Of a DNA stretch of 64,000 bases, positions 1,457-26,057 are shown piece after piece. Origin of the DNA: an uncultured Planctomycetota bacterium. Lineage in GTDB: Bacteria > Planctomycetota > Planctomycetia > Isosphaerales > Isosphaeraceae. The DNA lies in the NCBI GenBank assembly GCA_963823665.1, contig CAWGMQ010000004.1, positions 2,464,001 to 2,528,000 of the forward strand. Direction: 5' to 3'. Made by a program: the position numbers and the translations under genes. The stretch's first letter is position 1; every line of letters starts with the position of its first letter. The notes beneath the pieces were generated by a model. The model saw only the letters and a program-made list of their open reading frames with translations, was not told the DNA's origin and did no database searches.

Positions 1457-3128
1457 TCATGACGGTGGTTTACGAGCCCGCCGGAAGATCTGAACGTCAC
1501 CCGTTTGCTGCTCCAAGTCGAACCAGCGCTTGGTGATCGCCTCGAGCTCTGGATCGCTTTTCCAGAACAGGACCACATCGACCGACCTGGCGTGGCTGCT
1601 CAGGAGCTCTTCCCAATCGCGCGAGCCGGGCGGCTTTGACCGCTTTGTCGTTCGGGTCGTCGTGAATCGAGATCAACTCCAGCTTGCCGGAATCGGGCCG
1701 CTCGATCTCCGGGCGGAACTGCACCGGGAAGTAATAGTGCCGGGCTTCGTAGTTGTTCCAGACCACGTTCCCGGTATCGACACCGAGCCAGTTTTCGGCG
1801 TGGAGCAGCGGATTGGCGCGAAAGCGGCCTCTTGAGCTTACGAGTAACGTGATGATTCTCTGGTCCCGGCCGACGAGGTTGCCGGCGCGGATCAGCTTGC
1901 CGGCGGTGGCGTCGGAATAGAGTGCGTAGTCCCAGACAATCGCCGCCTGGAGCGTGACCGCGAGGGTGATTGCCGCGAACACACAGCGTCCTGGCCAGCG
2001 GGATAAGTCTGCGTCAAAAACCGGCACCAAAGCAATGAAGCCGAGGAGCAGCGCCCGCTGAGGGAGGAATTCTCCGTGGGCGGGGCCGAATGAGTCAGGG
2101 CCGACGATTCCTCCGAGTAGAAGCAAGGCGGCCAGAACCATCCAGCCCTGGCGGTCATCTACTGATTTCTGCGTTTGGATCGGTTCTTGAGCGGCTGGGG
2201 CATCCGCCCGGTGCCTTTGCCTGGGGGTTTCTCTGCCGGTCATTCGAGCGTACCACCAGAGCACGAGGGCCACGGAGAGCCAGACGGCGGGAGCGAAGAT
2301 CGCAAAGGCGCGGCTCACCCGGCTTGTGAACGGCAAGCCCTCCTTCACGGCGAGCGTTATGGGATCGACCCAGCCCAGGCGCGCACCCCACAGGTTTTCC
2401 CATACCGGCTGAATTGGCGCGCTGCGCGTGGCTGCTTGCAAATAGAGGTAGCCGAGGATGAGAAGCGGCGCGAAGCTGATGGATGTTCGCAACAAGCGGG
2501 CGGTCCGGTATCTCCAGGGTTGTGTGCAGCCGTCCTGCAGCGGGCCCGCTACTGCCAGAACGATCAATCCCACCACGGTGAGCCCCAGACTGACCAGGTG
2601 GCAGAAGTATCCCAGGCAGAGTAGAAGCGCCAGCACTCCCATTCGACCGAACGAAAGCCGGTAGCGGCCCTGCCACCAGACGCCGAGGGTGATCGGGAAC
2701 AGGCAGCTTCCGATCAAGAAGCTGGTGAAGCCCAGCAGCCACGCCATGTTCATGGCGAGCAACGCAGAGAAAAGCGCTGCCAGGACCAGGCCCTTGCTCC
2801 CGCAGACGCGCCACCGGAGCCAGAGTGTGGCTGCTGCGAGACCGGCCAAGGTGATAGTGGTCATGATGCGATCGGCGATCCATGCCGGAAACTGCGTGAG
2901 GAGCCCGGCGAGCAGCAGGTGCCCTGCCCAGTTCGGGATCGGCTTCCACGCGATGGTGTAGACCAACCGGGAAGGAGATTCGGGGTCAAACGACTGGGCG
3001 AGGACCTGGGCGTTGTAGACGTGCGCTGGCCCATCCTGGGTCACGAACCAGGGCACAGCCCAGATCGCCGATAAGGGAACCGCCAGCGCCAAGGCCAGTG
3101 CCAGGAACCCAGGACAGCTCGCACGCAT
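1457..3128 (-). CDS. Multi-TM membrane protein, possibly GT-C glycosyltransferase-like; frameshift near 1625
   Basis: QDGPAHVYNA motif after the first TM and many TMs; C-terminus continues in another frame (DWEELLSSHARSVDVVLFWK...). Confidence 0.6.
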
Positions 3129-3242
3129 TTCGCGACTATAATCCATGAGTTGTCGAAGGAGGAGACGTATTGCGTCCAATCAGTCCGGGGCGCATGCTAA
3201 AAACCGTGAATCCAACCGCCGCCTCTCGAATTGAAGCACATC

Positions 3243-3944
3243 ATGAGCAACCTCACGATCGAAGTTTGGGACGCCACCGGAAACAAAAAGCAGTTGGTCG
3301 AGCTGCCGGCCGACGCACCGGTCAACCGCGTTATCGCGGTTCTCGTCGAGAAGATGAACCTTCCGAGGTACAGCCCAGACGGACAGTTGATGAGTTATAA
3401 ATTCCACCACAAGGCCAGCGGACGGCAGTTGCTCGACGACCAGACGCTTGCGTCGGCAGATATTCACAACGGCGATGTGTTGCGACTGCAACCGGAAATC
3501 ACGGCAGGCGGTGAAGAAGAGTCTTCGAGAGAGTCGGCGGTCGAGTCGCCACAAGAAGTGAAGGCGTGCCCGTTCTGTGGAGAATGGATCCTGGCCGTTG
3601 CGCGGAAATGCCGCTACTGCGACGAGTATCTCGACCCCGAGCTGCGGCGATCGGCCAGATCTGCTCCCGATGGTCTGGACCGGTTTGTGATTCCGCAGGG
3701 CCGGCCGGCCTCTGCCATCGCGAGCGGGTATCTCGGGCTCTTGTCGCTTTTTCCGTTCATTGGGTTCCCACTCGGAATCGGGGCGCTGATCACGGGCGTG
3801 GTTGCGCTCAAGACGCTGCGTGAGAATCCTCACCTTATCGGCCGGGGAAGGGCCTGGTTCGGACTGATCGTGGGGACCATCGGCACACTCTTCAGTGCGT
3901 TCATGATCGTGGTCATGGTGATCGTCGGCGTCACGAAGCGCTGA
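3243..3944 (+). CDS. Ubiquitin-like (YukD/EsaB-type beta-grasp) domain ending ...PEITAGG, fused to Zn-ribbon and DUF4190-like TM domain
   Basis: 90-aa Ubl (LLDDQTLASADIHNGDVLRL) with Gly89-Gly90 at 3507-3512, then CPFC..CRYC and two TMs with GRGRAWFG. Confidence 0.85.
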   Translation: MSNLTIEVWDATGNKKQLVELPADAPVNRVIAVLVEKMNLPRYSPDGQLMSYKFHHKASGRQLLDDQTLASADIHNGDVLRLQPEITAGGEEESSRESAVESPQEVKACPFCGEWILAVARKCRYCDEYLDPELRRSARSAPDGLDRFVIPQGRPASAIASGYLGLLSLFPFIGFPLGIGALITGVVALKTLRENPHLIGRGRAWFGLIVGTIGTLFSAFMIVVMVIVGVTKR

Positions 3945-4019
3945 GCGTGCTCGAAACGAATCCTGGACGAATACTCGGACAACGGGGCACAGTCCGGACC
4001 AGTCGGAAGGACAACGGCG

Positions 4020-5269
4020 TTGAGCGACGTGATCCGGTTGAGCGGCGATGTCCAGGGCGACCTTGACCGCTTCGCGAGGTTCCGGTTGATCAGTTGGTGG
4101 GACCAGGAGCGACTGGCCGCGGCCAAGGTGGTTGTGATCGGCGCGGGGCGCTGGGCAATGAGATCGTCAAGAACCTGGCTCTGCTGGGAGTAGGCCATGT
4201 TTTCGTGGCTGACCGCGATCGGATCGAGCACTCGAACCTATCGCGGTCGATCCTGTTCCGTGAATCGGACTGCGGCCGGCCGAAAGCCCAAGTGGCCGCG
4301 GAGCGGGCTGCAGAGGTTTACCCGTCGATCAAGGTACAGCCCTTTCTGGGAAACATAGTGCACGATCTGGGGGTTGGCATTTACCGCTGGGCCGATGTGA
4401 TTCTGGGAGGACTTGACAATCGCGAAGCCCGGGTCGCGATCAACCACGCGAGCGCCCGGGCGGGGAAGGTCTGGATCGACGGTGCGATCGAGCGTTTAGA
4501 TGGGGTCGCTCGCGTGTTTGACCCGGCGACCGGGCCTTGCTACGAGTGCACGATGGGTGTGAATGACTGGAAGATGCTCGAGGCCCGGCGAAGCTGTGCC
4601 CTGCTCTCTCGAGGGGAAATGGAGCAGGGCAAAGTGCCGACTACCCCCACCACCGCCTCGATTATTGCGGGCATCCAGGTGCAGGAAGCGGTCAAGTATT
4701 TGCACGGGCTCGAGACGATCTCAGGCCAGGGCTTCATTTTCGACGGGACATTTCATCAGAGCTACGTGGTGAGCTACACCCGCAAGGCCGACTGCCCGGC
4801 GCACGACGCCGATCAGCCGGTCGAGCCGCTTTCGCAGAAGGTTGCGTCGACCCGAGTAGGCGATTTGCTCGAGCGAGCGCGGTCGGATCTGGGGAGTGAA
4901 GCGATCATCGAACTGGGGCGGGACCTGCTCCGGTCGCTCCATTGCCCGGCTTGCCGTGAAGACGAGACCGTGTTTGCCTCCCTGGGAAAAATCACGGAAG
5001 CGCGCGGCCGCTGCCCGCGCTGCGGGGAGCCGCGAACTCCTTCCATGTTTCACTCGGTCGACGGCCGCGATTCCGATCTCCTGGAAAAGACCCTGGGCGA
5101 GATCGGCATTCCAGCGTGGGATGTTGTCCACGGCCGTGCCGGGATGGAGCAGCGATTCTACGAGTTTCAAGGCGATTCATCGCTTGTGCTGGGCGTTCTT
5201 GATCATCACCCTCGCTCGAAAGCGACGAGCGGTCCGGACCATCCCGCGATAACAGGTGCGACCTCATGA
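4020..5269 (+). CDS. E1-like ThiF/MoeB/UBA activating enzyme; frameshift in G-run at ~4146
   Basis: DRFARFRLISWWDQERLAAAKVVVIGAG joins ALGNEIVKNLALLGVG; DRIEHSNLSR, DNREAR, PCYEC, candidate catalytic Cys in RRSCALL, C-terminal CPAC/CPRC. Confidence 0.9.
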
Positions 5270-6454
5270 CGGACGAGCGTCCTCAGCCGGAAGAGCTCAC
5301 CGACGTTCGCGTGCTGGCACGCGAGAAACTAACGCATGAAGCATTTCCCGGCGGCCGCAATGAAGGCCTTCGGGTCTTCTTCACGCCGCGGGTGCACGAG
5401 GCGCTCTGGCAGCACGCCGTGTTGGACACGAGCGTCGAGATCTGCGGGGTTCTGGTGGGCACCTGGCATCGCGACGACGCGGGGCCGTTTGTGAAGATCG
5501 TGGAATCGATCCGTGGAGAGGGGGCGGAAACCCGGTTTGCCGAGGTGACGTTCACGCACCAGACCTGGGCCAAGATCAACGCCGAGATGGACACCAAGTT
5601 TTCCAAGCTATCGATCGTCGGCTGGTATCACACGCACCCGGACTTCGGGATTTTCCTGTCGGACCGCGATCGTTTCATCCACGAGCACTTTTTCTCCGGC
5701 CCCGGCCAGGTCGCGCATGTGATCGACCCGATCCGGAAAACCGAAGGGGTCTTCATCTGGCGTGGGGGCAAGCCGAGCCCATGCGAGCATTTCTGGGTCG
5801 GAGACCGAATTCTGGTCGAATCTCCGGGGGGATTTGAACAGTCAAGCGAACTGGAGGCCGGCGGGCGCTCGCATGCGGCGGCAATGCCTGGGCGGGTAGC
5901 CGCCCCGCCGCAGGGGGCAGCGCAGTGCGGCAGCGCCCTCGGGAACGATGCGCGAGTTGTTCCCGGGGCCCGGGCGGTTGATTGCGTACGCGATCGTCTT
6001 TATCCTGGGCTATCTTCTGGCTAGTATACTCTCGGCATGGGAACATCAACGCTTCGTGGAGAGTGTGCTGGCCAGCAACGGGTATATGGCCGTGCTCAGG
6101 CTAGGGCTCGCCGATGAGCTTGACGGGCTTCGCGGCGATCTGGCCGGGATGGTTCGTCCGCTCGAGGCACTGGGATCGAAGACCGACAAGCCGGAGGAGC
6201 AACTCGCCGAGATCCGTGCACAGGTCGTGACGGCACTGCGGCGGACGGATGCAATCAAAGCCCGGTATGGAAACACGTCGGCCGAGGACGACATGCTCAA
6301 ACGCATGCTCCGCGACCTCCGCGACCGCCTGATGGCCCAGCAGCAGCTTCGTTTGCCCGAGATCCCGAATCCAGAAACGTCGCCGCCAAAGGACCGGGCA
6401 AAAGACGACGGCAAAGCGGAGGCTTCCAAGGAAACCGCGACTCCCAAGTCCTGA
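5266..6454 (+). CDS. JAB/MPN+ (Mov34) metallopeptidase, probably with C-terminal TM and coiled coil (frameshift ~5915), or two overlapping genes
   Basis: EICGVLVG...GWYHTHPDFGIFLSDRD JAMM motif; overlapping ORF 5948-6454 has a TM and a helical region. Confidence 0.85.
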
Positions 6455-6516: not shown

Positions 6517-7584
6517 ATGTCGACGTCGAGCTCGCGCGAACCGATTCGCCTCACGGCGGATGACCTATTCTCACCCAAGGTCGAAGCCTTCCTTGACGAG
6601 CAGGCTGCGCTCAACCGGGCGCTGCCGGAAACGTCGCCTCAGCCGTTCATTGTTCGGGTCTTGTACTCGAGCTATTTCTATCTGAGCCTGGCGAGTGGGC
6701 TGGGGGCTTTCCTGGGCTGGCTCGTTCTCGAGCCGTTCCTCGATGACAAGCACATGGGGTGGGCCGGGTTTCTTCTGTTTCCAACTGTTGCTGCCTCGAT
6801 CGGAATGTTCCTGGGCGCAGCGGAGGGAATCATGTGCCGCAACGCCCAGCGGGCGGCGATCTGTGCGGCGGTCGGTCTGGGTGTGGGGTTTGTGGGCGGC
6901 ATCGTGTCGGTTTTTCTTGCCACCATCATGTTCACGATCACGTCGGTGATCTCGCTGGCACTCTCAAAGAAACAGCCTCAACCAGGGGAGCTGCCGACGG
7001 GCATGGGATTCCTCGTCTTCATGATGGGGAGGGCCTCGGCGTGGGCGCTCGCAGCGGTTCCGGCCGGCATTGGCCAGGGGATCGCGCTACGTGAACCAAA
7101 GGTGCTGCTCAACGGTCTGCTCGGAGGCGTTCTGGGTGGCCTGCTCGGCGGGATGGCTTTCGACCCGATTTACTTGATGTTCACGTCAAAGGACGGTGAG
7201 GCCTCGCTCAGCCGGGGCATCGGGTTGACCCTGATCGGCCTGATGGTCGGGCTGTTTGTGGGGATGGTCGAGCAATGGACCAAGTCGGCGTGGCTGCTCA
7301 TGAAAGCAGGACCGCTCGCCGGTAAGCAATTCGTTCTGTTCCGCAACCCGACGGTTCTGGGCAGCGCACCCAAGGCGGATGTTTACCTTTTCAAGGACGG
7401 GGCCATCGAGCCGCGACACGCACTGATCCACGATCGCGGCGGCCGTTTCGAAATCGAGGACATGAACACGGCGGACGGAACGTATGTCAACGGCCTGCCG
7501 GTATCCAGGCAGATCCTCAAATCCGGCGATCAGATCGTGCTGGGCAAGACCGTACTCGAGTTTGCACTCAAGGAATCGCGCTAG
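6517..7584 (+). CDS. Multi-TM membrane protein with C-terminal FHA domain
   Basis: Gly-rich TMs, then VLGSAPKADV...IEPRHALI...DMNTADGTYVNG...LKSGDQIVLG. Confidence 0.85.
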   Translation: MSTSSSREPIRLTADDLFSPKVEAFLDEQAALNRALPETSPQPFIVRVLYSSYFYLSLASGLGAFLGWLVLEPFLDDKHMGWAGFLLFPTVAASIGMFLGAAEGIMCRNAQRAAICAAVGLGVGFVGGIVSVFLATIMFTITSVISLALSKKQPQPGELPTGMGFLVFMMGRASAWALAAVPAGIGQGIALREPKVLLNGLLGGVLGGLLGGMAFDPIYLMFTSKDGEASLSRGIGLTLIGLMVGLFVGMVEQWTKSAWLLMKAGPLAGKQFVLFRNPTVLGSAPKADVYLFKDGAIEPRHALIHDRGGRFEIEDMNTADGTYVNGLPVSRQILKSGDQIVLGKTVLEFALKESR

Positions 7585-7604: not shown

Positions 7605-8183
7605 ATGGCCATTTCCTTTCAGTGTCCTCAATGTGGGAAGAAGCTCAAGGCACCAGACAATGCCGCGGGCAAGTCGTCGAGCTGTCCGGGCTGCGGCAAT
7701 AAGGTGACGTGCCCGGAGCCGGTCTATGACGCCGAAGTCGTCGAGATGGAGATGGCGCCGGATAAACCGAAAGGGTTTGATCCATTCGCAGACATGGACG
7801 ACGACAAACCCTACAAGGTTGCCGGTACCCCACCGCCTACGGAGTCGGCTGATGACGGTCGCCGCCCCTGCCCGATGTGCGGTGAGATGATCGTCGCGAC
7901 GGCTGCCAAATGCCGGTACTGCGGCGAGGTGTTCGACCCGACCCTGAAGAAATCGAAGTCCAAGAAGAAGAAGAAAAGGCACAGTCCGGAAGATGAAGAA
8001 CTTTCTGGTAGCGAAATTGCCGTCGCCATACTTTGCTCAGGCATCGGCTGCATCGCCGGCATCGTCTGGATGATACAGGGAAAACCCAAGGGATTGAAGA
8101 TGGTCGGAATTTCGATCGGCATGGTCATCGTATGGAACATTATCAATGTGGTTATCCGATTTACGTTGTTGAACCAAAACTGA
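7605..8183 (+). CDS. Double Zn-ribbon membrane protein with poly-Lys tract
   Basis: CPQC..CPGC, CPMC..CRYC, KKSKSKKKKKR and C-terminal TMs; GGAGG RBS. Confidence 0.8.
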   Translation: MAISFQCPQCGKKLKAPDNAAGKSSSCPGCGNKVTCPEPVYDAEVVEMEMAPDKPKGFDPFADMDDDKPYKVAGTPPPTESADDGRRPCPMCGEMIVATAAKCRYCGEVFDPTLKKSKSKKKKKRHSPEDEELSGSEIAVAILCSGIGCIAGIVWMIQGKPKGLKMVGISIGMVIVWNIINVVIRFTLLNQN

Positions 8184-8202
8184 GTGGGAGCGTCGTCGGC
8201 CG

Positions 8203-8928
8203 ATGCCTGCCATTGTTTCCTGTAACTGCGGTGCCCGAATCAAGGTGCCTGAAGGAGCGCGGCCGGATGCCATGCTTCGGTGCCCGCGCTGCAAGGCCGA
8301 GATTGTGCTGGCCGGCGAGGGCCGGATCGTCACCGCGAAACTGGCCGATCCCGCGACGATGGGAGGAATCTGCGCGGTATGTCAGTCGGCCGTGAGCCCT
8401 GGGGAGGCCGTGCTGGCTTGCCCCAGTTGCGACCAGTTGCATCATCGCGAGTGCTGGAACGAAGTGGGCGGGTGTGCAACGTACGGCTGCGAGAATGCGC
8501 CGGCAACGGAAAAAGCGGCCGCGTTCGAGGCACCACGGACTGCATGGGGTGAAACCAAGAAGTGCCCCGCCTGCGGCGAGACGATCAAATCGATTGCTCT
8601 GCGCTGCCGTTACTGCGGCACCGATTTCGACACGGTTGATCCCCTCACGCTCAAGGACCTTAAAAAGCAGGTTGTGGGCGAGGAACGGCTGCAGACGACA
8701 AAAACGCTGGTGATCCTGTTTTTCGTGCTCAGTGTGCTGGGCTGCCCAGCCCCGATCGTGGTGGTTGCCGCCTCCTGCTACGTGCTGCTCAAGCACAAGA
8801 CCGTTGCCAAGGCCGGGCCGGCCTATCTGGTCATGGGCTATTCCGCGATCGCGATCTCCGCTTTATATTCGATATTATTCTTGTTGTTCTTTATCGGCTC
8901 ACAGATGGGAACAGCTCGCGCCCCGTAG
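8203..8928 (+). CDS. Prokaryotic RING-finger (E3-like) protein with Zn-ribbons and C-terminal TMs
   Basis: CAVC-x12-CPSC-x3-HHRECW...GGCATYGC, matching Prok-RING family 1. Confidence 0.85.
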   Translation: MPAIVSCNCGARIKVPEGARPDAMLRCPRCKAEIVLAGEGRIVTAKLADPATMGGICAVCQSAVSPGEAVLACPSCDQLHHRECWNEVGGCATYGCENAPATEKAAAFEAPRTAWGETKKCPACGETIKSIALRCRYCGTDFDTVDPLTLKDLKKQVVGEERLQTTKTLVILFFVLSVLGCPAPIVVVAASCYVLLKHKTVAKAGPAYLVMGYSAIAISALYSILFLLFFIGSQMGTARAP

Positions 8929-9013
8929 GCGACGGGCTCGAGCGACGGGCCAGGGGCATCAAATCGTTACAACCTTGCCCGAGCGGGAGCCAGACCGTAA
9001 GGAGATCATTCCG

Positions 9014-10387
9014 TTGGACGCGGCAGGCGCGAGGTCATTGATCGCTTGTCCACGCGAGGTGGGCGCGGAGTGCCCTCACTGCGCGGCCGACGTCGTGCTG
9101 GGCGACCCGATCATGGTCTGCCAGGCGTGTGGGACGGTTCACCATCGGGCATGCTGGCGGGTTCATGATCGGTGCGGGGCCTATGCATGCGCGCCCGGGC
9201 GGCGTGACTCACCCGAGCCACGGCACTCCGACGCGGTTTTGACGATCACCCAAGCCGAGATCGAGCGCGCGGTGCCGCTGGCTCCCGCGATTCGTCCCAT
9301 GTTCGGCGCCCAGAGTCCAGGTGGCGGGGCGTTTCCGCCCCCGGTGCCGACCCGCGCGGGCTGGAACGGCCTGGCGATTGCTTCGTTCATCTGTGCTCTC
9401 GCGGGCATTCCGCTTTTTGGACTCATCACCGGGATGGTCGCGGTTGTGCTGGCCGTCATTGCGCTCGGCGCGATCCGGGCCAGCTCACAGCGCGGGCTGG
9501 GGCTGGCGCTCGGAGGCCTGTTGCTCGGTTTGGTGGACGTGGTGGGGTGGATTGCGCTCATTGTGATGCTGCTGCCTGGGTTTTTTAGTCGCGAACTGCC
9601 GGCGGACCTGCACTTTTCGGAGGCACCGCCGGATCTTTCCGCGATCCGGGAGCTTGCGCCGCCGCTCCAGCGCGCGATGAGAGCCAATGTGCTGATCGAG
9701 CGGCACACCGGGATTGCCGCGCTGGGCGGTAAGGCTGTCGGCTCGGGAGTGATCTTGCAACTGAGCGACGGCGAAGCCCTGATCGTCACGAACCGGCATG
9801 TCGTCGATGACGAATTCCCTGCGTCGCACAACGATGCCGCTCAAGCCGACCATCTCACCCGGCTCGGCAAGATGTCGGTCACGTTGCTGGACCAGCCGAA
9901 ACTTGAAGGCCAAGTCGTCTGGCTTGCTCCCGGGCAAATCGACCTGGCGATGATCCGCGTTCGCTGCAGTCCGTCCGGTCAGGCGAGGGATGCTGCGTGG
10001 GAGCGAGGCCGGCCCATGAAGGTGGGGGAGACGGTTTTCGCGATCGGCAATCCCTATCAGCTCGGCTGGACGCACACGCAGGGTGTGATTTCACAGATGC
10101 GCTCCCAGGATTTCGACTTGCATCGCGTGCGGGTGATCCAGATGCAGGCGGCGATCAACCCCGGCAACAGCGGTGGGGGTCTTTACGACAGCGACGGCTA
10201 TTTGCTCGGCATCAATACGTGGACAGCCGACAAGAGCGTGAGTGAAGGAATCGGCTTTGCGATTGCGCTCGACAGCCTGCTCGAGCTGGCCCCGCCGCCG
10301 CTTGCGCCGCGGCCGGAGAAACCAACGGCGGCACCGGCGGAGAAAACCCCCTCCAAGACAGCTCACACCAAGAGAAGCGCGCCATGA
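9014..10387 (+). CDS. RING finger - DUF4190-like TM - trypsin-like (S1C) serine protease fusion
   Basis: CPHC..CQACGTVHHRACW..CGAYAC; TMs; triad motifs TNRHVV, IDLAMI, INPGNSGG; TTG start after AAGGAG. Confidence 0.85.
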   Translation: MDAAGARSLIACPREVGAECPHCAADVVLGDPIMVCQACGTVHHRACWRVHDRCGAYACAPGRRDSPEPRHSDAVLTITQAEIERAVPLAPAIRPMFGAQSPGGGAFPPPVPTRAGWNGLAIASFICALAGIPLFGLITGMVAVVLAVIALGAIRASSQRGLGLALGGLLLGLVDVVGWIALIVMLLPGFFSRELPADLHFSEAPPDLSAIRELAPPLQRAMRANVLIERHTGIAALGGKAVGSGVILQLSDGEALIVTNRHVVDDEFPASHNDAAQADHLTRLGKMSVTLLDQPKLEGQVVWLAPGQIDLAMIRVRCSPSGQARDAAWERGRPMKVGETVFAIGNPYQLGWTHTQGVISQMRSQDFDLHRVRVIQMQAAINPGNSGGGLYDSDGYLLGINTWTADKSVSEGIGFAIALDSLLELAPPPLAPRPEKPTAAPAEKTPSKTAHTKRSAP

Positions 10388-11136
10388 GCACGGTCCGCCT
10401 GCGACGGCTGCACGCCGATTACGAGAAGATCCAGGAATACATCAAGGGGCATCCAAGGCTCCAGTTGATTCAGGTCGATGGGTCGCCGCCGGAGCGCTAT
10501 CAACTCGAGTATCGGATTCGCGGATTGCGCCAGACGGCCGACGAGCTGTCGATCGTGAAGAGCCACATGGTGGAAGTTTCGCTGCCGGTTAGCTATCCGC
10601 GGCTGCCGCCGCAATGCCGGATGCTCACGCCGATCTTCCATCCTAACATAGCACCCCATGCGATCTGCATCGGCGACCACTGGAGCCCAGGAGAGCCGCT
10701 GTGGTCGATCGTGGCGCGAATCGGCGAGATGATCGCCTACCAGAGCTACAACACCAAGAGCCCCTTGAACGGCGAGGCCGCACGATGGGTCGACCAGCAT
10801 GTGGATGAGCTGCCACTCGACCCAGTAAGCATGATGCCCGACGACGCGATGGCCTCCAGTGCCGGCGCGCCAGCTTCACGGCCGGCGGCAGCCACTTCAG
10901 CGACAAATTCACCGCGGCCGTCTGCCCAGGTCAGGCCAACGCCGGGCGTGCCGCCAACCTCACGGCCGGTGGAAAGTCACACGCGACCAGAGGCCTCACC
11001 TCCGCCGGTGCCATCACCGGTCGGCAGTGAATTCGCCTGCCCGCAATGTGGGGCCTTATTGAAGTTGAAACCGGAGCTGGCCGGGAAGCAAGTGCGATGC
11101 CTTCGTTGCAAGACGGTGTTTCGGATTCCGCTCTGA
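10384..11136 (+). CDS. Ubiquitin-conjugating enzyme E2 (UBC fold) with Pro-rich linker and C-terminal Zn-ribbon
   Basis: RLRRL..DY, YPRLPP, TPIFHPNIAPHAIC (HPN and catalytic Cys), W.P, SPLNGEAA; CPQC..CLRC. Confidence 0.9.
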   Translation: MSTVRLRRLHADYEKIQEYIKGHPRLQLIQVDGSPPERYQLEYRIRGLRQTADELSIVKSHMVEVSLPVSYPRLPPQCRMLTPIFHPNIAPHAICIGDHWSPGEPLWSIVARIGEMIAYQSYNTKSPLNGEAARWVDQHVDELPLDPVSMMPDDAMASSAGAPASRPAAATSATNSPRPSAQVRPTPGVPPTSRPVESHTRPEASPPPVPSPVGSEFACPQCGALLKLKPELAGKQVRCLRCKTVFRIPL

Positions 11137-11192
11137 TAAGCGAGCTTCCTCTGGAAGAGGAAGACGATGCGCCGGCGCGCGCCCGGCGCCGG

Positions 11193-11609
11193 ATGAAACG
11201 CCACCGCGAGGTGCTGCTGATCTCATGCGCTGTCTGGCTTCTGGCTTTCTCGCTGCATGAGCTTCCCGACGGGCGCGTCGCGGTGCGCGGATTACCGCAA
11301 TTTCCGTTACCTCAGACATGCATGTCGCGGGCGATTTTTGGCCTGCGGTGCCCGGGCTGCGGGCTGACGCGATCGATCATTCATCTGGCACACGGTGACT
11401 GGCGGGCTTCGTGGCATGACCACCGGCTGGGCGGTCTGCTCGGGATCGTGATCGCGCTCCAGATCCCTTACCGGCTTTACGCGCTACGGAGACCTGAGCA
11501 AGAGGTGCTGCCCTCGCGCTGGCAGGCTGCGATGGGATATGCGCTGATTGGTCTTCTCTTGGCGAACTGGCTGTTGGATGTGGCGGCGGGGCGGTTGCGG
11601 TCGCCATAA
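11193..11609 (+). CDS. DUF2752 membrane protein
   Basis: C...FGLRCPGCGLTRS motif with TMs; start may lie further upstream. Confidence 0.75.
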   Translation: MKRHREVLLISCAVWLLAFSLHELPDGRVAVRGLPQFPLPQTCMSRAIFGLRCPGCGLTRSIIHLAHGDWRASWHDHRLGGLLGIVIALQIPYRLYALRRPEQEVLPSRWQAAMGYALIGLLLANWLLDVAAGRLRSP

Positions 11610-19493: not shown

Positions 19494-22400
19494 TCACGTC
19501 GATAGAGTGGGCCGCCGACGAACCAGTTCAGCAAATCGACGGCGCTCTGGATGCAGCACGCCAATCCGCACCGCACTCCCAGCCGCTGACTTGGTCGATG
19601 AGCTCCTCGAGACAGATACCTGCGCCCGGGTCGACGTTTGTGCTCTCGCCATCGCCGGCCCCTGCCGGATGGCAGCAGCCGTGTCGGAGACCCGCGCGAG
19701 CGTTACCGGCGGCGGGCCGATCGGCAGTCCTGGCGAGAACGGATAGCGCTGGATCTCGAACGGCGGGTCCTTCATTGTGACCAGCACGTCTCCGAATTGA
19801 CCCAGACCGTAAACCGAGTAGCCCAGGTAGGCCCGCCCGGTGCCGTGTTTGCCTTGCTTGACGGTGCCGGTAAGAACCGTATGATGCCGCACCTCGCCGA
19901 CCAGCACCAGCCGCTGGCCCTGGCCTGACTCGGTGAGCAGGTCTTCAACGTAACCGCCATGCTCCACGCCGAAGCTGACCTTGTTTCCCCCGGCATCCTT
20001 GTAACTCAGATGTTTGCCCTGGGCGAAGAGCGCCCTGAAATTGGTGCCCGGGTGGCCCGCTCCCAGGCCGGCGAGCAGGTTGCCGCCGACGTCCGTGACT
20101 CCGCCCGCGGTGCCCTTGATCAGCAGGCTGTAAAACACATTCGACAACAGCGGCTGCATAGGAACCAGCGTCACTGTCCAGTTCACCGGATTATAAGCAG
20201 GCGCATAGAGAGCCTGTTGCGGACCCGTCGCGCTGAACGTTCCCTGGTGGCCCACGAGCGCCACTGCAAAGTTGGCCGGGTTGGTCGCGGTGGCCGCTGC
20301 AAGCGGCTCGCTGAAGCTCAGGATGAGGCTCGTGATCGTTTTCGCCGTGCCGGTCCATTGCACGGCCGTGACAGTGGGCGAGTTGGTGTTCGGGTTGAGG
20401 TCTTTGATCGTCAGGATCGCGCTGCTAAGTGCGCCCAGAAGCGCGCCATCCCCCGGACCGGCGAGCGCCAGGCCGACTGTCTCGTCGTGGCTGTCGTATG
20501 GATCGTCCAGCACCGGGACTGAAACGGTCTCCTGCGCGACGCCCGCCGGGAAGACGACCGTCTCCGCGGTCGGCGTGTAATCGAGGCCGGCAGTCGCAGT
20601 CATCGGCACCGTCGTGAAATTGACGGAGACCTGCCCAAGCTGGCCATCCGACCTGACGACCTCAATGTCGGCGAACCCCGCGTTGTCGTCAACCTCGTAG
20701 TTGGGCGCACTGAACTGCAAATCGCCCGGCCGGTCAGTGACGGTCGACGTCACTGTTGCAGTCGCCTGGCTCGGCGTTCCGTTAAATTCGTTGGCGGTGA
20801 CGCTCATCGTGGAAGTGAGCTCACCGATCGCTGCTTGCTGGGGCGTGACCACGATGGTGACGTTCACACTTGCCCCGACCGCCAGGCTGCCGATGTCGGC
20901 CCGCAGGTCTGGTCCCGATTGATTCACCGGCCCGCTGACACCCGATGAGCCCGGCTGCAAAACCCAGTTCCCCGACACAAAATCGACATCAGAGGCCAGT
21001 GGGAAAGCGAGAGTCACTCCGGTGGCCGGCGACGGACCGTTGTTGGTGATGACCGCTCTGTAGGTCAGCTCGTCAGCGAATTCGACGGGATCTGGCGACG
21101 CTGTGAATTGAGTAATCGCGAGGTCGGCCATGGGAAGGATCGGCGTCGAGACCATCGCGGTGTTGGAGCTTGCGTTGAACTCGTTGGTCGTGACGACCGC
21201 CATGTTGACGATTGGCGAGTCGGCCACTGCCGATTCAGTCGAAACGACGGTGATCGTCAGTATTGCTGAGGTATTGATGGTCAAGGTGCCGAATGTCGCG
21301 GTCACCTGTCCGTTTTGAATCGACGCGTTCAGCCCGGCCACCGACGTGGTGGCTATCACGTTCGAGGTTATGTCCGGCGGCAGCGTATCGGTCACGATGA
21401 CCCCGGTGGCAATTGAAGGGCCGCTGTTCTTTGCAGTGATCGTGTACGTCAGATTCTTGCCGACGTAATTCGGGCCGGGCGGGCCCGTCATTTGAAGCCC
21501 GACGCCGGTCACTGCCGTGACCGTGGTCTCCACCGAGGCCGAATTGTCAGGGTTGTCATTCGACGGAGAGCTGATGGATGCGCTATTGGTTATTGTGCCC
21601 GTGCCGCTCCCCGCGGCGGCCGCGGTCGGCGTCACGACGATGGTGATGGTGGCCGTGGCGCTCGCCGGCAGGTTGGCGAGCGGCATCGTGAGAATACCGC
21701 CCGATGGAGTCGCGCCGCCCGTGGCCGACACGAAGGACACGTTTGCCGGCAGCTCGTCGGTCACGACCGCGGCCGGGTCGGCCGACGGCCCGCTGTTGGT
21801 CGCCTTAATCGTGTAGGTCAGATTACTGCCCGCGCCGACCGAATCGGGGTTGCCCGACATCGTGATCGAAAGGTCGGTCACCGGGGCCACCGGCACCGAG
21901 TTCATCACGGTGTTCGGGTTCGGGTTGTACTCGTTGTCGGTCACGGTCACGCTGTCGACGAGCGGCGAGTCGGATACCGCGGCAAGCGTGGGCACGACCG
22001 TGATGGTCATGCTGACACTGTCGCTCTGGTCAAGCTCGCCGAAGCTTGCGTTGACCTGGCCGCCGGATACGCTCGCCGTCACCCCCGACACCGACGTGGT
22101 GGCGATCACGTCAGAGGTGATGTCTGCCGGCAGCGCATCGGTCAAGACCACGCCGGTCGCGTTCGACGGACCGTCGTTGGTGGCCGTGACGGTAAAGGTC
22201 AGGTTCTGCCCGACCTGGGCCAGGGTCGGAACCGCGCTTAACTGCAAGCCGATGGCGGTCACCTCGAAGACCATCGTGGTCGTCGAGGCCGAATTGTCCA
22301 GGTTGGCGTTGTACATCCCGGTGATGACCGCGCTGTTTGTGATCGTGCCGGTTCCGGAGCCGGCCGCCGCCGCGGTGGGCGACACGACGATGGTGACGGT

Positions 22401-25400
22401 CGTGGTGTCGTTGGCCGCCAGCGTGCCGAGGGGCAAGGTCAGCACGTCACCGGACGGAGTCACGCCGTTTGTGGCCGACACAAAGGTCACATTTGCAGGC
22501 AGCGTGTCGGTCACGACCGCGTCCGGGTCGGGCGACGGGCCGCTGTTGGTCGCCTGAATTGTGTACGTCAGCTCGCTGCCGGCGCCGACCGGGTCGGGCG
22601 TGCCCGACATCGTGATCGAGAGGTTGCTCACCGGCACGGGCTGAACCGTCGTCATCACCGGGGGCGGCGTGTTGTTGCTCGGGTCAGGATCGTACGTGCT
22701 GCTGGAAACCGTCGCGCTGTCGCTGATCTGGGGGATCGACGAGGTGTCGGTCTCGACCGTGATCGAAACGGTCGCGGTCGCGCCCGCGGCCAGCGTGCCC
22801 AGGTCGGCCGTGACCTGGCCGCCGGAAATGGTCGCCGTCACACCCGGCACCGACGTGGTTACCGTCACGTTCGACGTGATGTTCTGCGGTAGCGTGTCGG
22901 TCACGTCGACGTCGGCCGCGTCCGACGGGCCGGCGTTGGTCGCCGTTAACAAGTATGTGACAGTATTACCGGCGATCACGGCGTCCGGGCTTCCGCTCAA
23001 GGTCAGGCCAAGGTCGGCAGAGGGATCCACCAGGGTCGTCACTGAGTCGGTGCTGTTGCCCGGGTTCGGATCAAAGTCAGCACTCGTGACGCTCGCCATG
23101 TCAGTGATTTGTGGGATGGCGCTATCCGTCGGAACGACGGTGATGGTGAGCGTGGCGAAGGTGTTACCCCTCATCGTGCCGAAATCGGCGGTCACCACGT
23201 CGCCGTCGATGCTGGGCGTCACGTTTGGATCCGACGCGACTGCTGTCACGTTCGAGCTGATGCTCTGCGGCAGCGTGTCCGTCACGTTCACACCGGTGGC
23301 ACCTTCTGACCCGATATCCGTGACCGTCACGGTGTACGTCAAAGTGCCGCCGACATAGACTGAGGGAGTCGGCGAGGCGGTGACCTGTACGGCGACGTCG
23401 GCACTCGGCACCGCAACGATGTCCTGCGAAAACTCGGACGTATTGCCCAGGGGGTCGGTCGCGGTGGCCGAGATCACCCAGCCGGCCGGCGTGGGGGTGT
23501 TCAGCACGGTGTCGAAGCTCGCGTTGTAGTCGGCCCCGGTCGTAACGGTCGTGCTGCCGAGGTACTTCTGGCCCTGGCCGTATCCCGAAGGGTCGGCGGT
23601 GGCACTTGCAAAAAACTGCACGAGATAGGTCGTGCTGGCCGAGGCGTTCAAGGTGCCGATGACCTCGGTCGTCGTTGCCGTATACGCCGCCTGGGTCAGA
23701 ACCGGATAGTTCTGGAAATCGTTGTTTTGAGGGAGTGTGAATCCTTGTTCGTCGAGATGGTTCGGAGTTGGTCCGCCAGGCCCCGGTGGGGCACCTAACA
23801 GGGAGATCCCCAGGCTGCCGTTGTCGTAGATCGAGTTCGAGAGGAAGGAATTGTGATCGTTGTTGGAAACGACCACGATCCCTTGGTTCACGTTGTTGGT
23901 GATCACGTTGCCGGCCCCTTGGGCTGTGCCGCCGATCGTGATGTTGCTTGCCACGAGATCCACGCCGTTACTCTTATTGCCGAGGTCGTCGCCAGCCGAG
24001 TCGGTGCCGATATAGTTGCCCAGAACGACCAATCCATCGGCCTCGCCGGAGTACTCAGCGATTCCGTCTTGGTCGTTGGCCGAGATCACGTTCGCCGCGC
24101 TTGCGACCGTGCCGCCGACCGTGCTATCGCCCGGGACACTGATGCCGCTGCCCACGTTCGGCAGTGGATTCCTACCGGTGACGTCCACCCCAATCAGGTT
24201 GCCTTCCATCAGCTCGCCCACCGTCTTACCCGTTAGGCTATCGATCCCGGTTCCGTTGTTGCCCGAGATCACGTTTCCCGCGCCGCTGACGGTCCCCCCG
24301 ACAGTCGCATACGACGCACCGAAAAACTGAACGCCGGAATAGTTGCCAAGCGCGATCTTGCCGGTCACATCGGTGCCGCAGTAGTTGCCTTCGACGAGAT
24401 CGCCGATGCCGTTGCCCAGCGCGACGCCCGATTCAACATTGCCCGAGACGATATTTCGTGCCGCCGCCGCCGTGCCGCCGATCGTAATGTCGTCGGCACC
24501 ATCCAGCAAGACACCGTTAATGCCGTTGCCGAGGATGCTCGTAGCTCCCGTCGCAAGGCCGATGATGTTGCCCTCGATCAGCCCCCCCGTATCGTAGGTC
24601 GGGGCGGCAAACCGCCCCAGGTTGATGCCGTTCTGCAAATTGCCGGAGATCAGATTGGCCGAGCCTTTCACGGTCCCCCCGATCGTCATCCCGGTTGCAC
24701 CTAAGGCCTGGATTCCGTCCTGGACGTTCGGCACTGCCGCGGTGCCCGCCAGATTCGTGCCGATCGTGCTCGACTGAATGACTGTGTTGCTTGTCCCCGG
24801 GTCGAGCAGGACGCCGCAGATGGAGTTGCCAGAAATCAGGTCGCCGGTGATCGTCGTGCCCGTCACCCCGCCCAGATGGATTCCATTCAAGGTGTTGGGA
24901 ATCGCGACGGTCCCAGTGGAGTCGGTGCCGATCAGGTTATTCGCGATCAGATTGGTCGAAGAGGGCCCGTTGACCTGCTGAATCAGGATCCCTTCGCCGG
25001 TGTTGCCCGAGATCACGTTGCCGCTGATCGTGTTCTGCGATGCATCATCCAGCAGCAACCCGTCTTGCCCGTTGCCCAGCGCAGCGCTCCCGCTCGCTTT
25101 GATTCCGATGTAATTCCCTTCGACCAGATTGCTGTCGGTTGCCTGGGCATCGCCGATCGCGATTCCCTCATTCGTATTGCCCGAAATGACGTTCCGCGCA
25201 GCGGCGGTCGAGCCCCCGATCGTATTGCTGGCTGACCCAAAGATCTCGATGCCCACCCCGTTGGCCTTGGCGTTCGCACCGTCGGCTGTCCCGACGTAAC
25301 AGCCCTGGATCACGTCGTTTCCGCTGCCGGTCACCAGAATCCCCACGCCCGGACAGCCGGAGACGGCCAGGCCTTGAATCGTGCTCGATGCCGCCGCGTC

Positions 25401-25769
25401 CCAGAAGATCCAGCCCGACGCCGGCACGCTCGAGCCGTTGATCGATATCAGCGGCACTCCCGAGTAACCGCTCTGACTCGTGCCGTCAATGTTCACCGAG
25501 TCGGTGATCTGAGGTAACGATGAGCCCAGCGTGATCGTGTGAACCCCAGTTCCGGAGATCGCGAAATCGATGGTGTCAGGGGTCGAGTCGCCGTTGACCT
25601 GGTTGATCGCCCACCGTAGCGAGCCCATGTTCGAATCGTCGTTTGTATCCGTCACCGTGTAAGTCGAAAGCAGCTCGCGAGGCTCGAGCCACTCCACGCG
25701 GAACCGGTTCTTCCGCGCGGCAACGGCGCGCTTTCCGAGACGGCGAGTCACGTTAGATGCCTTGGTCAT
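19494..25769 (-). CDS. Giant secreted/surface protein: LEPR-XLL, beta-helix repeats, seven DUF11 Ig-like repeats, Calx-beta
   Basis: EWLEPRELLS; repeated NVISGN/GNYIG; (A/T)DL.I..S..P...G..LTYT...N.GPS units; GDLQFSAPNYEV. Confidence 0.9.
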   Translation of the reverse strand: MTKASNVTRRLGKRAVAARKNRFRVEWLEPRELLSTYTVTDTNDDSNMGSLRWAINQVNGDSTPDTIDFAISGTGVHTITLGSSLPQITDSVNIDGTSQSGYSGVPLISINGSSVPASGWIFWDAAASSTIQGLAVSGCPGVGILVTGSGNDVIQGCYVGTADGANAKANGVGIEIFGSASNTIGGSTAAARNVISGNTNEGIAIGDAQATDSNLVEGNYIGIKASGSAALGNGQDGLLLDDASQNTISGNVISGNTGEGILIQQVNGPSSTNLIANNLIGTDSTGTVAIPNTLNGIHLGGVTGTTITGDLISGNSICGVLLDPGTSNTVIQSSTIGTNLAGTAAVPNVQDGIQALGATGMTIGGTVKGSANLISGNLQNGINLGRFAAPTYDTGGLIEGNIIGLATGATSILGNGINGVLLDGADDITIGGTAAAARNIVSGNVESGVALGNGIGDLVEGNYCGTDVTGKIALGNYSGVQFFGASYATVGGTVSGAGNVISGNNGTGIDSLTGKTVGELMEGNLIGVDVTGRNPLPNVGSGISVPGDSTVGGTVASAANVISANDQDGIAEYSGEADGLVVLGNYIGTDSAGDDLGNKSNGVDLVASNITIGGTAQGAGNVITNNVNQGIVVVSNNDHNSFLSNSIYDNGSLGISLLGAPPGPGGPTPNHLDEQGFTLPQNNDFQNYPVLTQAAYTATTTEVIGTLNASASTTYLVQFFASATADPSGYGQGQKYLGSTTVTTGADYNASFDTVLNTPTPAGWVISATATDPLGNTSEFSQDIVAVPSADVAVQVTASPTPSVYVGGTLTYTVTVTDIGSEGATGVNVTDTLPQSISSNVTAVASDPNVTPSIDGDVVTADFGTMRGNTFATLTITVVPTDSAIPQITDMASVTSADFDPNPGNSTDSVTTLVDPSADLGLTLSGSPDAVIAGNTVTYLLTATNAGPSDAADVDVTDTLPQNITSNVTVTTSVPGVTATISGGQVTADLGTLAAGATATVSITVETDTSSIPQISDSATVSSSTYDPDPSNNTPPPVMTTVQPVPVSNLSITMSGTPDPVGAGSELTYTIQATNSGPSPDPDAVVTDTLPANVTFVSATNGVTPSGDVLTLPLGTLAANDTTTVTIVVSPTAAAAGSGTGTITNSAVITGMYNANLDNSASTTTMVFEVTAIGLQLSAVPTLAQVGQNLTFTVTATNDGPSNATGVVLTDALPADITSDVIATTSVSGVTASVSGGQVNASFGELDQSDSVSMTITVVPTLAAVSDSPLVDSVTVTDNEYNPNPNTVMNSVPVAPVTDLSITMSGNPDSVGAGSNLTYTIKATNSGPSADPAAVVTDELPANVSFVSATGGATPSGGILTMPLANLPASATATITIVVTPTAAAAGSGTGTITNSASISSPSNDNPDNSASVETTVTAVTGVGLQMTGPPGPNYVGKNLTYTITAKNSGPSIATGVIVTDTLPPDITSNVIATTSVAGLNASIQNGQVTATFGTLTINTSAILTITVVSTESAVADSPIVNMAVVTTNEFNASSNTAMVSTPILPMADLAITQFTASPDPVEFADELTYRAVITNNGPSPATGVTLAFPLASDVDFVSGNWVLQPGSSGVSGPVNQSGPDLRADIGSLAVGASVNVTIVVTPQQAAIGELTSTMSVTANEFNGTPSQATATVTSTVTDRPGDLQFSAPNYEVDDNAGFADIEVVRSDGQLGQVSVNFTTVPMTATAGLDYTPTAETVVFPAGVAQETVSVPVLDDPYDSHDETVGLALAGPGDGALLGALSSAILTIKDLNPNTNSPTVTAVQWTGTAKTITSLILSFSEPLAAATATNPANFAVALVGHQGTFSATGPQQALYAPAYNPVNWTVTLVPMQPLLSNVFYSLLIKGTAGGVTDVGGNLLAGLGAGHPGTNFRALFAQGKHLSYKDAGGNKVSFGVEHGGYVEDLLTESGQGQRLVLVGEVRHHTVLTGTVKQGKHGTGRAYLGYSVYGLGQFGDVLVTMKDPPFEIQRYPFSPGLPIGPPPVTLARVSDTAAAIRQGPAMARAQTSTRAQVSVSRSSSTKSAAGSAVRIGVLHPERRRFAELVRRRPTLST

Positions 25770-26057
25770 GGCATTTCCTCGTGTTGACAATCCACACGAT
25801 GCAATAATCAAGTCTCGCGCAACGAGAATCTGACACCTCGCTATGGTATAGGCGCCGCCATCACCGCATTCAGGGCGCTGCCGTTTGCGATTCTTTGCCA
25901 ATGAAGTCCGGATCGGCGAGATTCCCTCGCCTCCGACAAACGTCGAACGACCAGCGATCGATGCCCATTGAAATTATCGAAGGGACATGCCTGCGTGAAG
26001 TGATTGATGCCGGGCATAGGCAGCCGCGTTCGAGTCTGGGCCGATTCCCGCGTTTTG

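Follow-up and report, generated by a model that had tools for sequence, protein, structure and literature searches.

A ubiquitin-like protein fused in frame to a zinc-ribbon/DUF4190 membrane protein in a planctomycete E1-E2-RING-JAB operon: a probable processed precursor

In a 64,000-nucleotide stretch of DNA from an uncultured planctomycete of the Isosphaeraceae (hereafter the window, meaning the whole stretch at its full length), one reading frame joins the only ubiquitin-like protein (Ubl) of an operon for E1, E2, RING and JAB proteins, via an unstructured linker of about 15 residues, to a zinc-ribbon/DUF4190 membrane protein. We consider it probable that this fusion is a constitutively processed Ubl polyprotein (a pro-Ubl) that arose by stop-codon loss. 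The operon type, as well as JAB cleavage of a natural Ubl fusion (BubAB), is already in print. Our literature search found no description of a bacterial pro-Ubl with a membrane partner (Burroughs 2011 and 2012 or their supplements, or the supplements of the Bub/Bil studies, may show one), nothing relevant under DUF4190, and no experimental work on the planctomycete E1-E2-RING-JAB Ubl operon family.

The Ubl and its membrane partner share a single frame

The fusion gene spans 3243-3944 on the plus strand, with its stop codon at 3942-3944, and this region of the window translates as a single open frame of 233 residues with no internal stop. The initial annotation had cautioned that an extra base at the Ubl junction might mask a stop right after two glycines, and hence two separate genes. 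This caution does not survive comparison with other assemblies and homologs. An assembled Logan contig (X1/record 3; depth 3.4, 33 bases to the left of the predicted cut site, possibly derived from the window's own sample) spans 3477-3928 and is identical to the window, with no differing letters and no gaps, and the same-genus genome G029 aligns gap-free from 3233 to 3924. Used as a protein query, the fusion had 298 matches, of which 120 were listed; among those listed, 89, counting the window's own protein, carry the Ubl end followed by a zinc ribbon within 40 residues, and 80 of these 89 also contain the membrane motif. In the search of genome loci, the closest relatives are Planctomycetota, several of them named as Isosphaeraceae. 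One fused relative (P0071), identified by its source as Aquisphaera giovannonii OJF2_27250, lies on a 10.4 Mb contig of a closed genome.

The accompanying remark that the assembly contains many indels was correct at two places in the operon: one-base assembly gaps near 4149 (in E1) and 5918 (in JAB) break frames in the window that are whole in G029 and a second genome, G001. Both errors lie in G-runs, and the one at 5918 parts JAB from its membrane anchor. Alignment gaps at 9394 and 11183, for their part, break frames of G029 and not those of the window. With indels elsewhere and a gap-free junction, the indel caveat therefore holds for the operon and not for the join. The chance that a lost base hides a stop after the glycines is negligible: single-base errors do occur nearby, and a Gly-Gly-stop form exists in a distant locus (L056) and a Gly-stop form in another (L015), but the gap-free contig, the gap-free G029 alignment and the fused relatives all stand against it. 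The fusion of Ubl and zinc ribbon is real.

Domain architecture of the fusion protein

Within this one frame, the initial description of a Ubl continuing through an acidic linker into a zinc ribbon is confirmed. A YukD/ubiquitin-like domain (PF08817) is recovered at residues 15-82 (E 5e-11), and DUF4190 at residues 158-219 (E 9e-8, with a score under the gathering threshold). The Ubl beta-grasp occupies residues 1-89 (3243-3509) and has a predicted mature end of QPEITAG(89), as indicated by PF08817, the structural model and fold searches; in the latter, these 89 residues match ubiquitin, NEDD8, SUMO, Caldiarchaeum ubiquitin and a Bil Ubl. The acidic, Pro-rich and disordered linker (3510-3554) leads into a zinc ribbon (3558-3632; C109-x2-C112-x10-C123-x2-C126) defined by Cys conservation and by strands in the model. 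Across 70 fused proteins, C109, C112 and C126 are invariant and C123 is retained in at least 90%. The remainder is the DUF4190 membrane part (3708-3944), with three predicted hydrophobic helices at 3708-3743, 3762-3824 and 3843-3938, supported by Pfam and the model.

An AlphaFold2 model built from 70 fused relatives (mean pLDDT 77, pTM 0.35) comprises a beta-grasp domain at residues 3-86, a small zinc ribbon and hydrophobic helices at 156-167, 174-194 and 201-232. Linker residues 89-103 have pLDDT below 50 and are disordered, and at this pTM of 0.35 the Ubl does not pack on the rest of the protein. Column conservation is likewise low in the linker (0.48 vs 0.95 for the Ubl), and its counterpart in split relatives is the spacer plus the N-terminus of the separate gene. 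The two transmembrane segments first annotated are probably an undercount, given the three modelled helices and a basic loop before the third, which contains 3.7 Lys/Arg on average. Basic loops are cytoplasmic under the positive-inside rule; with both this loop and the N-terminal domains on the cytoplasmic side a hairpin is needed ahead of the loop, and hence probably three helices. In the model the first hydrophobic helix is short, and it could be re-entrant.

For the membrane part, the Atlas matches (0.92-0.93) are clusters made up of stand-alone planctomycete DUF4190 proteins. The zinc-ribbon/DUF4190 part gave no Foldseek match at E <= 0.001, and its best VIA Z (7.5) was to generic helical bundles, with its residues 1-51 barely covered. 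The CxxC-x10-CxxC spacing may resemble that of NZF ubiquitin-binding fingers, a likeness that the fold searches, which scarcely covered the ribbon, spoke neither for nor against. No NCBIfam or PADLOC family matched the fusion protein, and a promoter and terminator scan of 3000-4200 returned no sites.

The operon encodes a full set of conjugation components

The fusion gene opens a same-strand cluster whose order is kept in related operons; all the following genes lie on the plus strand. It is followed by an E1 of the ThiF family (4020-5269, TTG start; PF00899, E 2.5e-46; intact in G029 and G001) with a candidate catalytic Cys at 4595, and by a JAB/JAMM peptidase with a transmembrane helix and a helical tail (5266-6454, with the JAB domain at 5362-5805; PF01398, E 7e-12), the frame of which is interrupted in the window by an extra base near 5918 and forms a single ORF in G029 and G001. 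Next come a multi-pass membrane protein with a C-terminal FHA domain (6517-7584; PF00498, E 1.5e-13; hydrophobic segments assigned by sequence reading) and a double zinc-ribbon membrane protein (7605-8183) whose second ribbon is 56% identical to that of the fusion. Two RING proteins follow: a candidate E3 with Prok-RING_1, a zinc ribbon and a membrane segment (8203-8928; PF14446, E 5.5e-10), and a protein combining Prok-RING_1, DUF4190 and a trypsin-like protease (9011-10387, start approximate; PF14446, PF13828, PF13365). The cluster then continues with an E2 (UBC) carrying a zinc ribbon (10384-11136; PF00179, E 3e-11), with a putative catalytic Cys at 10666, and a DUF2752 membrane protein (11097-11609; PF10825, E 3e-17), which recurs after E2 in many loci and is the last gene seen in most related operons.

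The locus thus combines the hallmarks of prokaryotic E1-E2-RING-JAB operons, namely a beta-grasp Ubl with a conserved terminal Gly, same-strand E1, E2, Prok-RING_1 and JAB genes, and an intact JAMM motif. It also has those of a JAB-processed pre-protein, with a conserved boundary Gly inside a longer frame and a JAB in the operon, cleavage itself being predicted. The JAMM motif has the form E...H-x-H-x7-S-x2-D, and in the window its Glu lies at 5437 and the H-x-H-x7-S-x2-D element begins at 5629. Among 66 loci with JAB in view, the motif is present in 65 and a hydrophobic stretch behind the JAB domain in 55; this anchor is found in fused and unfused operons alike.

Outside the operon, an upstream gene (226-771) encodes a further small protein that has a zinc ribbon, hydrophobic helices at its C-terminus and weak Pfam matches only, and 19494-25901 on the minus strand encodes a repeat-rich protein of 2135 residues that is probably secreted or surface-located.

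The conserved Ubl end is Ala-Gly89

The Ubl was first annotated as ending in PEITAGG, with the two glycines at 3507-3512. The sequence is as described; Gly-Gly as a junction motif is not. Among the matches listed, G89 is kept in 87 of the 89 fused proteins and the ten residues up to it are nearly invariant, whereas the G89-G90 pair occurs in only 13 of the 89, and position 90 takes 12 different residues among the 87 fusions that have G89. By this comparison G90 is best read as the first linker residue, lying outside any conserved Gly-Gly. On the basis of G89 conservation, JAB is predicted to cut between G89 (3507-3509) and G90 (3510-3512) on the plus strand. The question of whether orthologues stop at AG or AGG has a mixed answer: of 76 unfused loci, nine stop right after G89 and 67 bear unrelated tails of 1-57 residues, while a Gly-Gly-stop is found in L056. 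We therefore rejected Gly-Gly as the cleavage motif, the conserved Ubl end being A88-G89, with unfused genes stopping after AG; no conserved C-terminal Gly-Gly of the di-glycine Ubl type was found in this comparison.

Neither the 67 unfused tails nor the 87 fusions among the matches listed ever have Pro, Asp or Glu at residue 90. For the tails, these residues occur in 0 of 67 cases at position 90 vs 68 of 416 at later positions (Fisher p 3e-5, a value overstated by the non-independence of kin). This absence agrees with the block of CsRpn11 by a Cys79Glu substitution, reported together with a helpful effect of a short linker before a folded domain in the available text of PMC6043591. A single-Gly end likewise has precedent, since the Bil Ubl is cut after Val-Ala-Gly97, where BilC also cuts a Ubl-GFP fusion, according to the accessible part of PMC10557695.

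A few fused proteins depart from this pattern. Five (P0066, P0070, P0075, P0069 and P0074) have an Arg at position 89, a diverged Ubl or both, with P0069 and P0074 combining Arg in place of G89 with a more diverged Ubl; these two count against the fused Ubl being a tag. All five are possibly decaying into uncleavable Ubl-domain membrane proteins, or reflect sequencing error.

Leu or Phe occupies residue 90 in 26 of the 87 fusions among the matches listed vs 2 of the 67 short tails. An N-terminal Leu or Phe is a classic bacterial N-degron under the N-end rule, and a cut after G89 may therefore expose an N-degron on the Leu/Phe membrane fragments, which may belong to one clade. As a general outcome we rejected this idea: the window has Gly, and most fusions small residues, at position 90.

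The fused Ubl retains the features of a conjugated tag

YukD-family matches in the genome number two, the window's Ubl and a 42% paralogue, and no second copy of the window's Ubl was found there. Identity to the window's Ubl over 89 residues is 81-89 for fused proteins and 82-85 for unfused close orthologues. Compared with L001, the Ubl is identical at 89 of 89 residues (pN 0.005, pS 0.37), and the linker drifts (pN 0.33, pS 0.74). E1 requires a free C-terminal Gly on its Ubl; unless the precursor is cut, the operon would be left without a tag. As this is the operon's sole Ubl and is so close to free orthologues, JAB cleavage after G89 is the likely route to a tag; on these sequence grounds, the operon's membrane-anchored JAB would likely yield an active tag by cutting there. 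The initial proposal of a membrane-held Ubl cut by the operon's JAB is accordingly kept, at the level of a prediction from the sole, conserved Ubl and the intact JAMM motif, with the cut moved from Gly-Gly to Ala-Gly.

The paralogue has an operon of its own (L083:6763-12388, on contig C4 of G000), which lies about 235 kb from that of the window and encodes a membrane RING protein, a Ubl ending in PEVVAG plus a three-residue tail, E2, E1 and a JAB with a membrane anchor. A weak match of about 40% in most of 121 family genomes is probably this L083-type paralogue, which would make the paralogue probably more widespread than the window's system.

Distribution and turnover of the fusion

We compiled the best 80 of 285 genome loci together with 30 family loci, of which 85 carry the Ubl after de-duplication. 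These comprise six full fusions (the window included), 12 loci with a separate zinc-ribbon/DUF4190 gene and 58 with E1 next to the Ubl, the rest being L002, L003, one Ubl fused to E1 and six others. L003 was judged a frameshifted fusion by eye, and the separate gene of L073 has no clear ATG. The zinc-ribbon/DUF4190 partner is thus dispensable at the Ubl-adjacent position in 58 loci. In L002 the Ubl match (8001-8267) is fused to the first part of the zinc ribbon only, the membrane part is deleted and E1 is next; from its sequence, this locus appears to be one of partner loss in progress.

The 26 close loci from 121 family genomes include six full fusions plus L002 and L003. Of 400 other genomes of the phylum, 23 gave a match, none extending past query residue 119, and a zinc ribbon next to the Ubl was found in 0 of the 22 parsed matches. 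On this sampling the membrane fusion appears narrow in taxonomic range, occurring in one group of soil planctomycetes. Three fused metagenome proteins (P0076, P0077 and P0092, the latter two being single sequences) group with split Pirellulales-type genes.

Fused and separate forms resemble one another closely around the junction. The split L015 has a TGA directly after G89 and 57 nucleotides to the first Cys, the same as in the window. The fused L007 keeps the separate gene's ATG and GGAG 13 codons before the first Cys, like split L011 and L015; the window has no L007-type ATG, and L010 has no in-frame internal start in its linker at all. Linker length varies little: 50 of the 89 fused proteins among the matches listed share a distance of 17 residues to the first Cys.

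In a FastTree phylogeny of four concatenated operon proteins from 77 loci, loci with a fused, a split or no partner intermingle within a single clade. For the zinc-ribbon/TM part, we built an IQ-TREE phylogeny of 45 rows (27 of 85 fused plus 18 separate; the frameshifted P0078 was dropped, P0089 was set as fused by eye, and seven 'solo' proteins came from a protein database without gene context). It implies nine state changes (7-9 in bootstraps), two of them forced by strong branches, and a single fused clade is rejected on this tree (p-AU 6.9e-9). Some of the fused and separate assignments may be assembly errors. Both stop loss and re-splitting have likely occurred; the counts alone give no direction. 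One clade is dominated by fusion (84 fused vs 20 separate rows; the query was itself a fusion, which biases this sample), and positive selection, instead of tolerance, could account for this dominance and for the narrow linker length.

A search for longer proteins (140 matches, 120 listed) recovered other forms in which EITAG leads directly into a partner. At least 16 proteins, plus P0119 and L006, join it to E1; the 16 are P0131, P0133-P0140, P0143-P0148 and P0150, and residue 90 is Ala in 15 of them among the matches listed. The Ubl-E1 fusion thus looks like a second recurring polyprotein form. In P0152, EITAG links the Ubl directly to a JAB-family domain, and this protein could process itself. 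Two Armatimonadota proteins (P0121 and P0151) have tandem Ubl domains, the last ending in EITAG, joined to TIR-domain regions; these are possibly JAB-released TIR effectors.

A proposed maturation route and competing explanations

In the route that we favor, the precursor would insert into the membrane with the Ubl, linker and zinc ribbon on the cytoplasmic side, and the membrane-anchored JAB would cut after A88-G89 as routine maturation. This cut would free the mature Ubl for transfer from E1 to E2 and conjugation with the membrane RING proteins, leaving behind the zinc-ribbon membrane protein, which would now begin at residue 90. JAB is envisaged to recognise the Ubl and to ignore nearly everything beyond G89, and for that reason loss of the Ubl stop codon would be tolerated whatever gene follows. 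Subsequent loss of the downstream start would lock in the join, giving 1:1 production of both parts beside the maturing enzyme. Cleavage of Ubl fusions, both natural and artificial, by related JABs is described in the available texts of PMC11601596, PMC10557695 and PMC6043591.

The initial annotation had instead proposed storage of the Ubl on the membrane until JAB acts as the trigger. In such a regulated store, uncut pro-Ubl would accumulate until a signal, reaching JAB by way of either its own helical tail outside the cytoplasm or the FHA membrane protein, activated the peptidase and released a burst of Ubl at the Ala-Gly site. We regard this as unlikely. It has in its favor that the operon's only Ubl is tethered, that JAB is anchored in the membrane and bears a long tail, that the FHA, RING and HtrA-like membrane proteins resemble a sensing module, and that in one clade the fusion is common and old with a linker of narrow length. 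However, six of the nine loci whose Ubl ends at G89, and hence needs no cut, adjoin E1 and JAB, close relatives L014, L015 and L016 among them, which argues against JAB gating as a conserved control point. The JAB anchor also occurs without the fusion, fused and separate states interconvert, no contact shields the cut site in the model, and characterised JABs cut precursors in vitro without an activator, as far as the accessible portions of PMC11601596, PMC10557695 and PMC6043591 describe. It is likewise doubtful, to about the same degree, that in the fused lineage the whole Ubl supply is a membrane zymogen, with the JAB tail or the FHA/HtrA-like proteins sensing envelope stress or attack. If that were so, the G89 cut would start ubiquitylation and unmask the zinc-ribbon partner in one step; the bacterium would possess a signal-gated, membrane-confined ubiquitin system and would offer a living model for ubiquitin-zinc-finger polyproteins, such as Ub-eL40, arising from an operon by stop-codon loss.

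The frame might also yield two products, an internal start making the zinc-ribbon membrane protein as well, with the fusion being mostly a disposable tail on the Ubl. The ancestral ATG and GGAG kept in fused L007 fit this idea, as does a GTG or ATG located three codons ahead of the first Cys in five of seven fused loci (the window included), a codon that is GTC in split L005, L011 and L015. But the linker of L010 offers no in-frame start, no ribosome-binding-like word accompanies the window's GTG at 3558 (the same is true of three of seven true starts checked), and this codon specifies a hydrophobic residue within a strand of the ribbon; we give this reading only a small chance. Still more improbable is that the membrane protein stays uncut, its Ubl serving as a structural domain as in the type VII secretion protein EccD. 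A Foldseek search with the whole model does rank EccD first (TM-score 0.28, rmsd about 13), P0069 and P0074 lack G89, and membrane-fused YukD-like domains are described, YukD not being conjugated (PMC1779556). The EccD match, however, runs through the Ubl fold only, the neighbors are E1, JAB, RING and E2 rather than ESX genes, and the tail as far as G89 does not vary and matches that of free modifiers exactly; without cleavage, moreover, the operon would have no tag. Against the 12-helix membrane domain and ESX locus characteristic of EccD/YukD (PMC1779556), the window presents three helices and E1, JAB, RING and E2 genes.

Comparison with known systems

The operon has the same gene set (Ubl, E1, E2, Prok-RING_1 of Pfam PF14446, and JAB) as the E1-E2-RING-JAB-Ubl operons of Planctomycetes, Actinobacteria and Acidobacteria predicted by Burroughs, Iyer and Aravind in 2011, as cited in the available texts of PMC4197634 and PMC10557695. 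The processed polyprotein that we favor is most readily compared with BubAB of Type I Bub systems, a natural Ubl-E2 fusion that BubCD cuts right after one conserved Gly (available text of PMC11601596): each is a bacterial Ubl fusion with an operon-encoded JAB, the cut here being predicted, that would free the Ubl and a second protein. As described there, BubAB has a soluble E2 partner, is fixed in all Type I operons, and belongs to a system with Ser-based chemistry, DUF6527 and no RING. In contrast, the window has a membrane zinc-ribbon/DUF4190 partner, a labile fusion, separate E1, E2 and JAB proteins and two RING proteins. The Type I Bub signature of Ubl-E2 fusion, JAB-E1 fusion and DUF6527 (PMC11601603) was not found, and Pfam returned no DUF6527 match among the 15 proteins scanned.

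In Caldiarchaeum subterraneum, an E1-E2-RING operon is accompanied by a JAMM peptidase (Rpn11) that matures pro-ubiquitin, cuts linear fusions and is sensitive to the residues following the cut and to a short linker; as the accessible parts of PMC6043591 and PMC5654768 describe, that precursor has a nine-residue soluble tail and a Gly-Gly end, and the peptidase is soluble. The window differs in its single Gly after Ala, its 144-residue membrane tail and its membrane-anchored JAB. BilABCD offers a JAB cut after Val-Ala-Gly, resembling the window's Ile-Thr-Ala-Gly, together with short, variable tails of up to nine residues and no E3 (available text of PMC10557695); its anti-phage role is shown in other work. 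The window's locus does not show the Bil arrangement of four genes (Ubl, E2, JAB and E1) with no E3 and matches to Bil profiles: it has two RING genes, and in PADLOC its E1 matches BilD weakly (E 6e-6), with no match for the Ubl or E2.

Eukaryotic Ub-eL40 and Ub-eS31, along with algal fusions of ubiquitin to an integral membrane protein, are head-to-tail arrangements released by peptidases, according to the portions available of PMC11354881 and PMC6332867. Ub-L40 chains head our PDB sequence search at non-significant E values (0.18-0.79; 0.18-0.96 for the eL40/eS31 comparison as a whole), fold searches barely covered the ribbon, and we treat the likeness to Ub-eL40/eS31 as analogy. The EAD1-Ubl-E2 polypeptides of FtsH ternary systems, for which JAB release of the Ubl is predicted in an operon with E1 and a prokaryotic RING, have a different, soluble architecture (available text of PMC7159879), and no vWA-MoxR or FtsH core was found among the annotated operon genes.

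Implications

Bacterial E1-E2-RING-JAB operons were predicted over a decade ago, and the variant described here would be one in which the Ubl is born as an integral membrane precursor. The fusion fixes the likely mature Ubl end at Ala-Gly89 and would place maturation at the membrane, alongside the anchored JAB and RING proteins. Because the fusion occurs in a cultured species (P0071), both cleavage and its regulation are directly testable. More broadly, ubiquitin-fusion genes appear here to be caught in the act of arising and coming apart within an operon, their partners being E1, JAB, TIR and membrane proteins, which would bear on the origin of eukaryote-style ubiquitin precursors.
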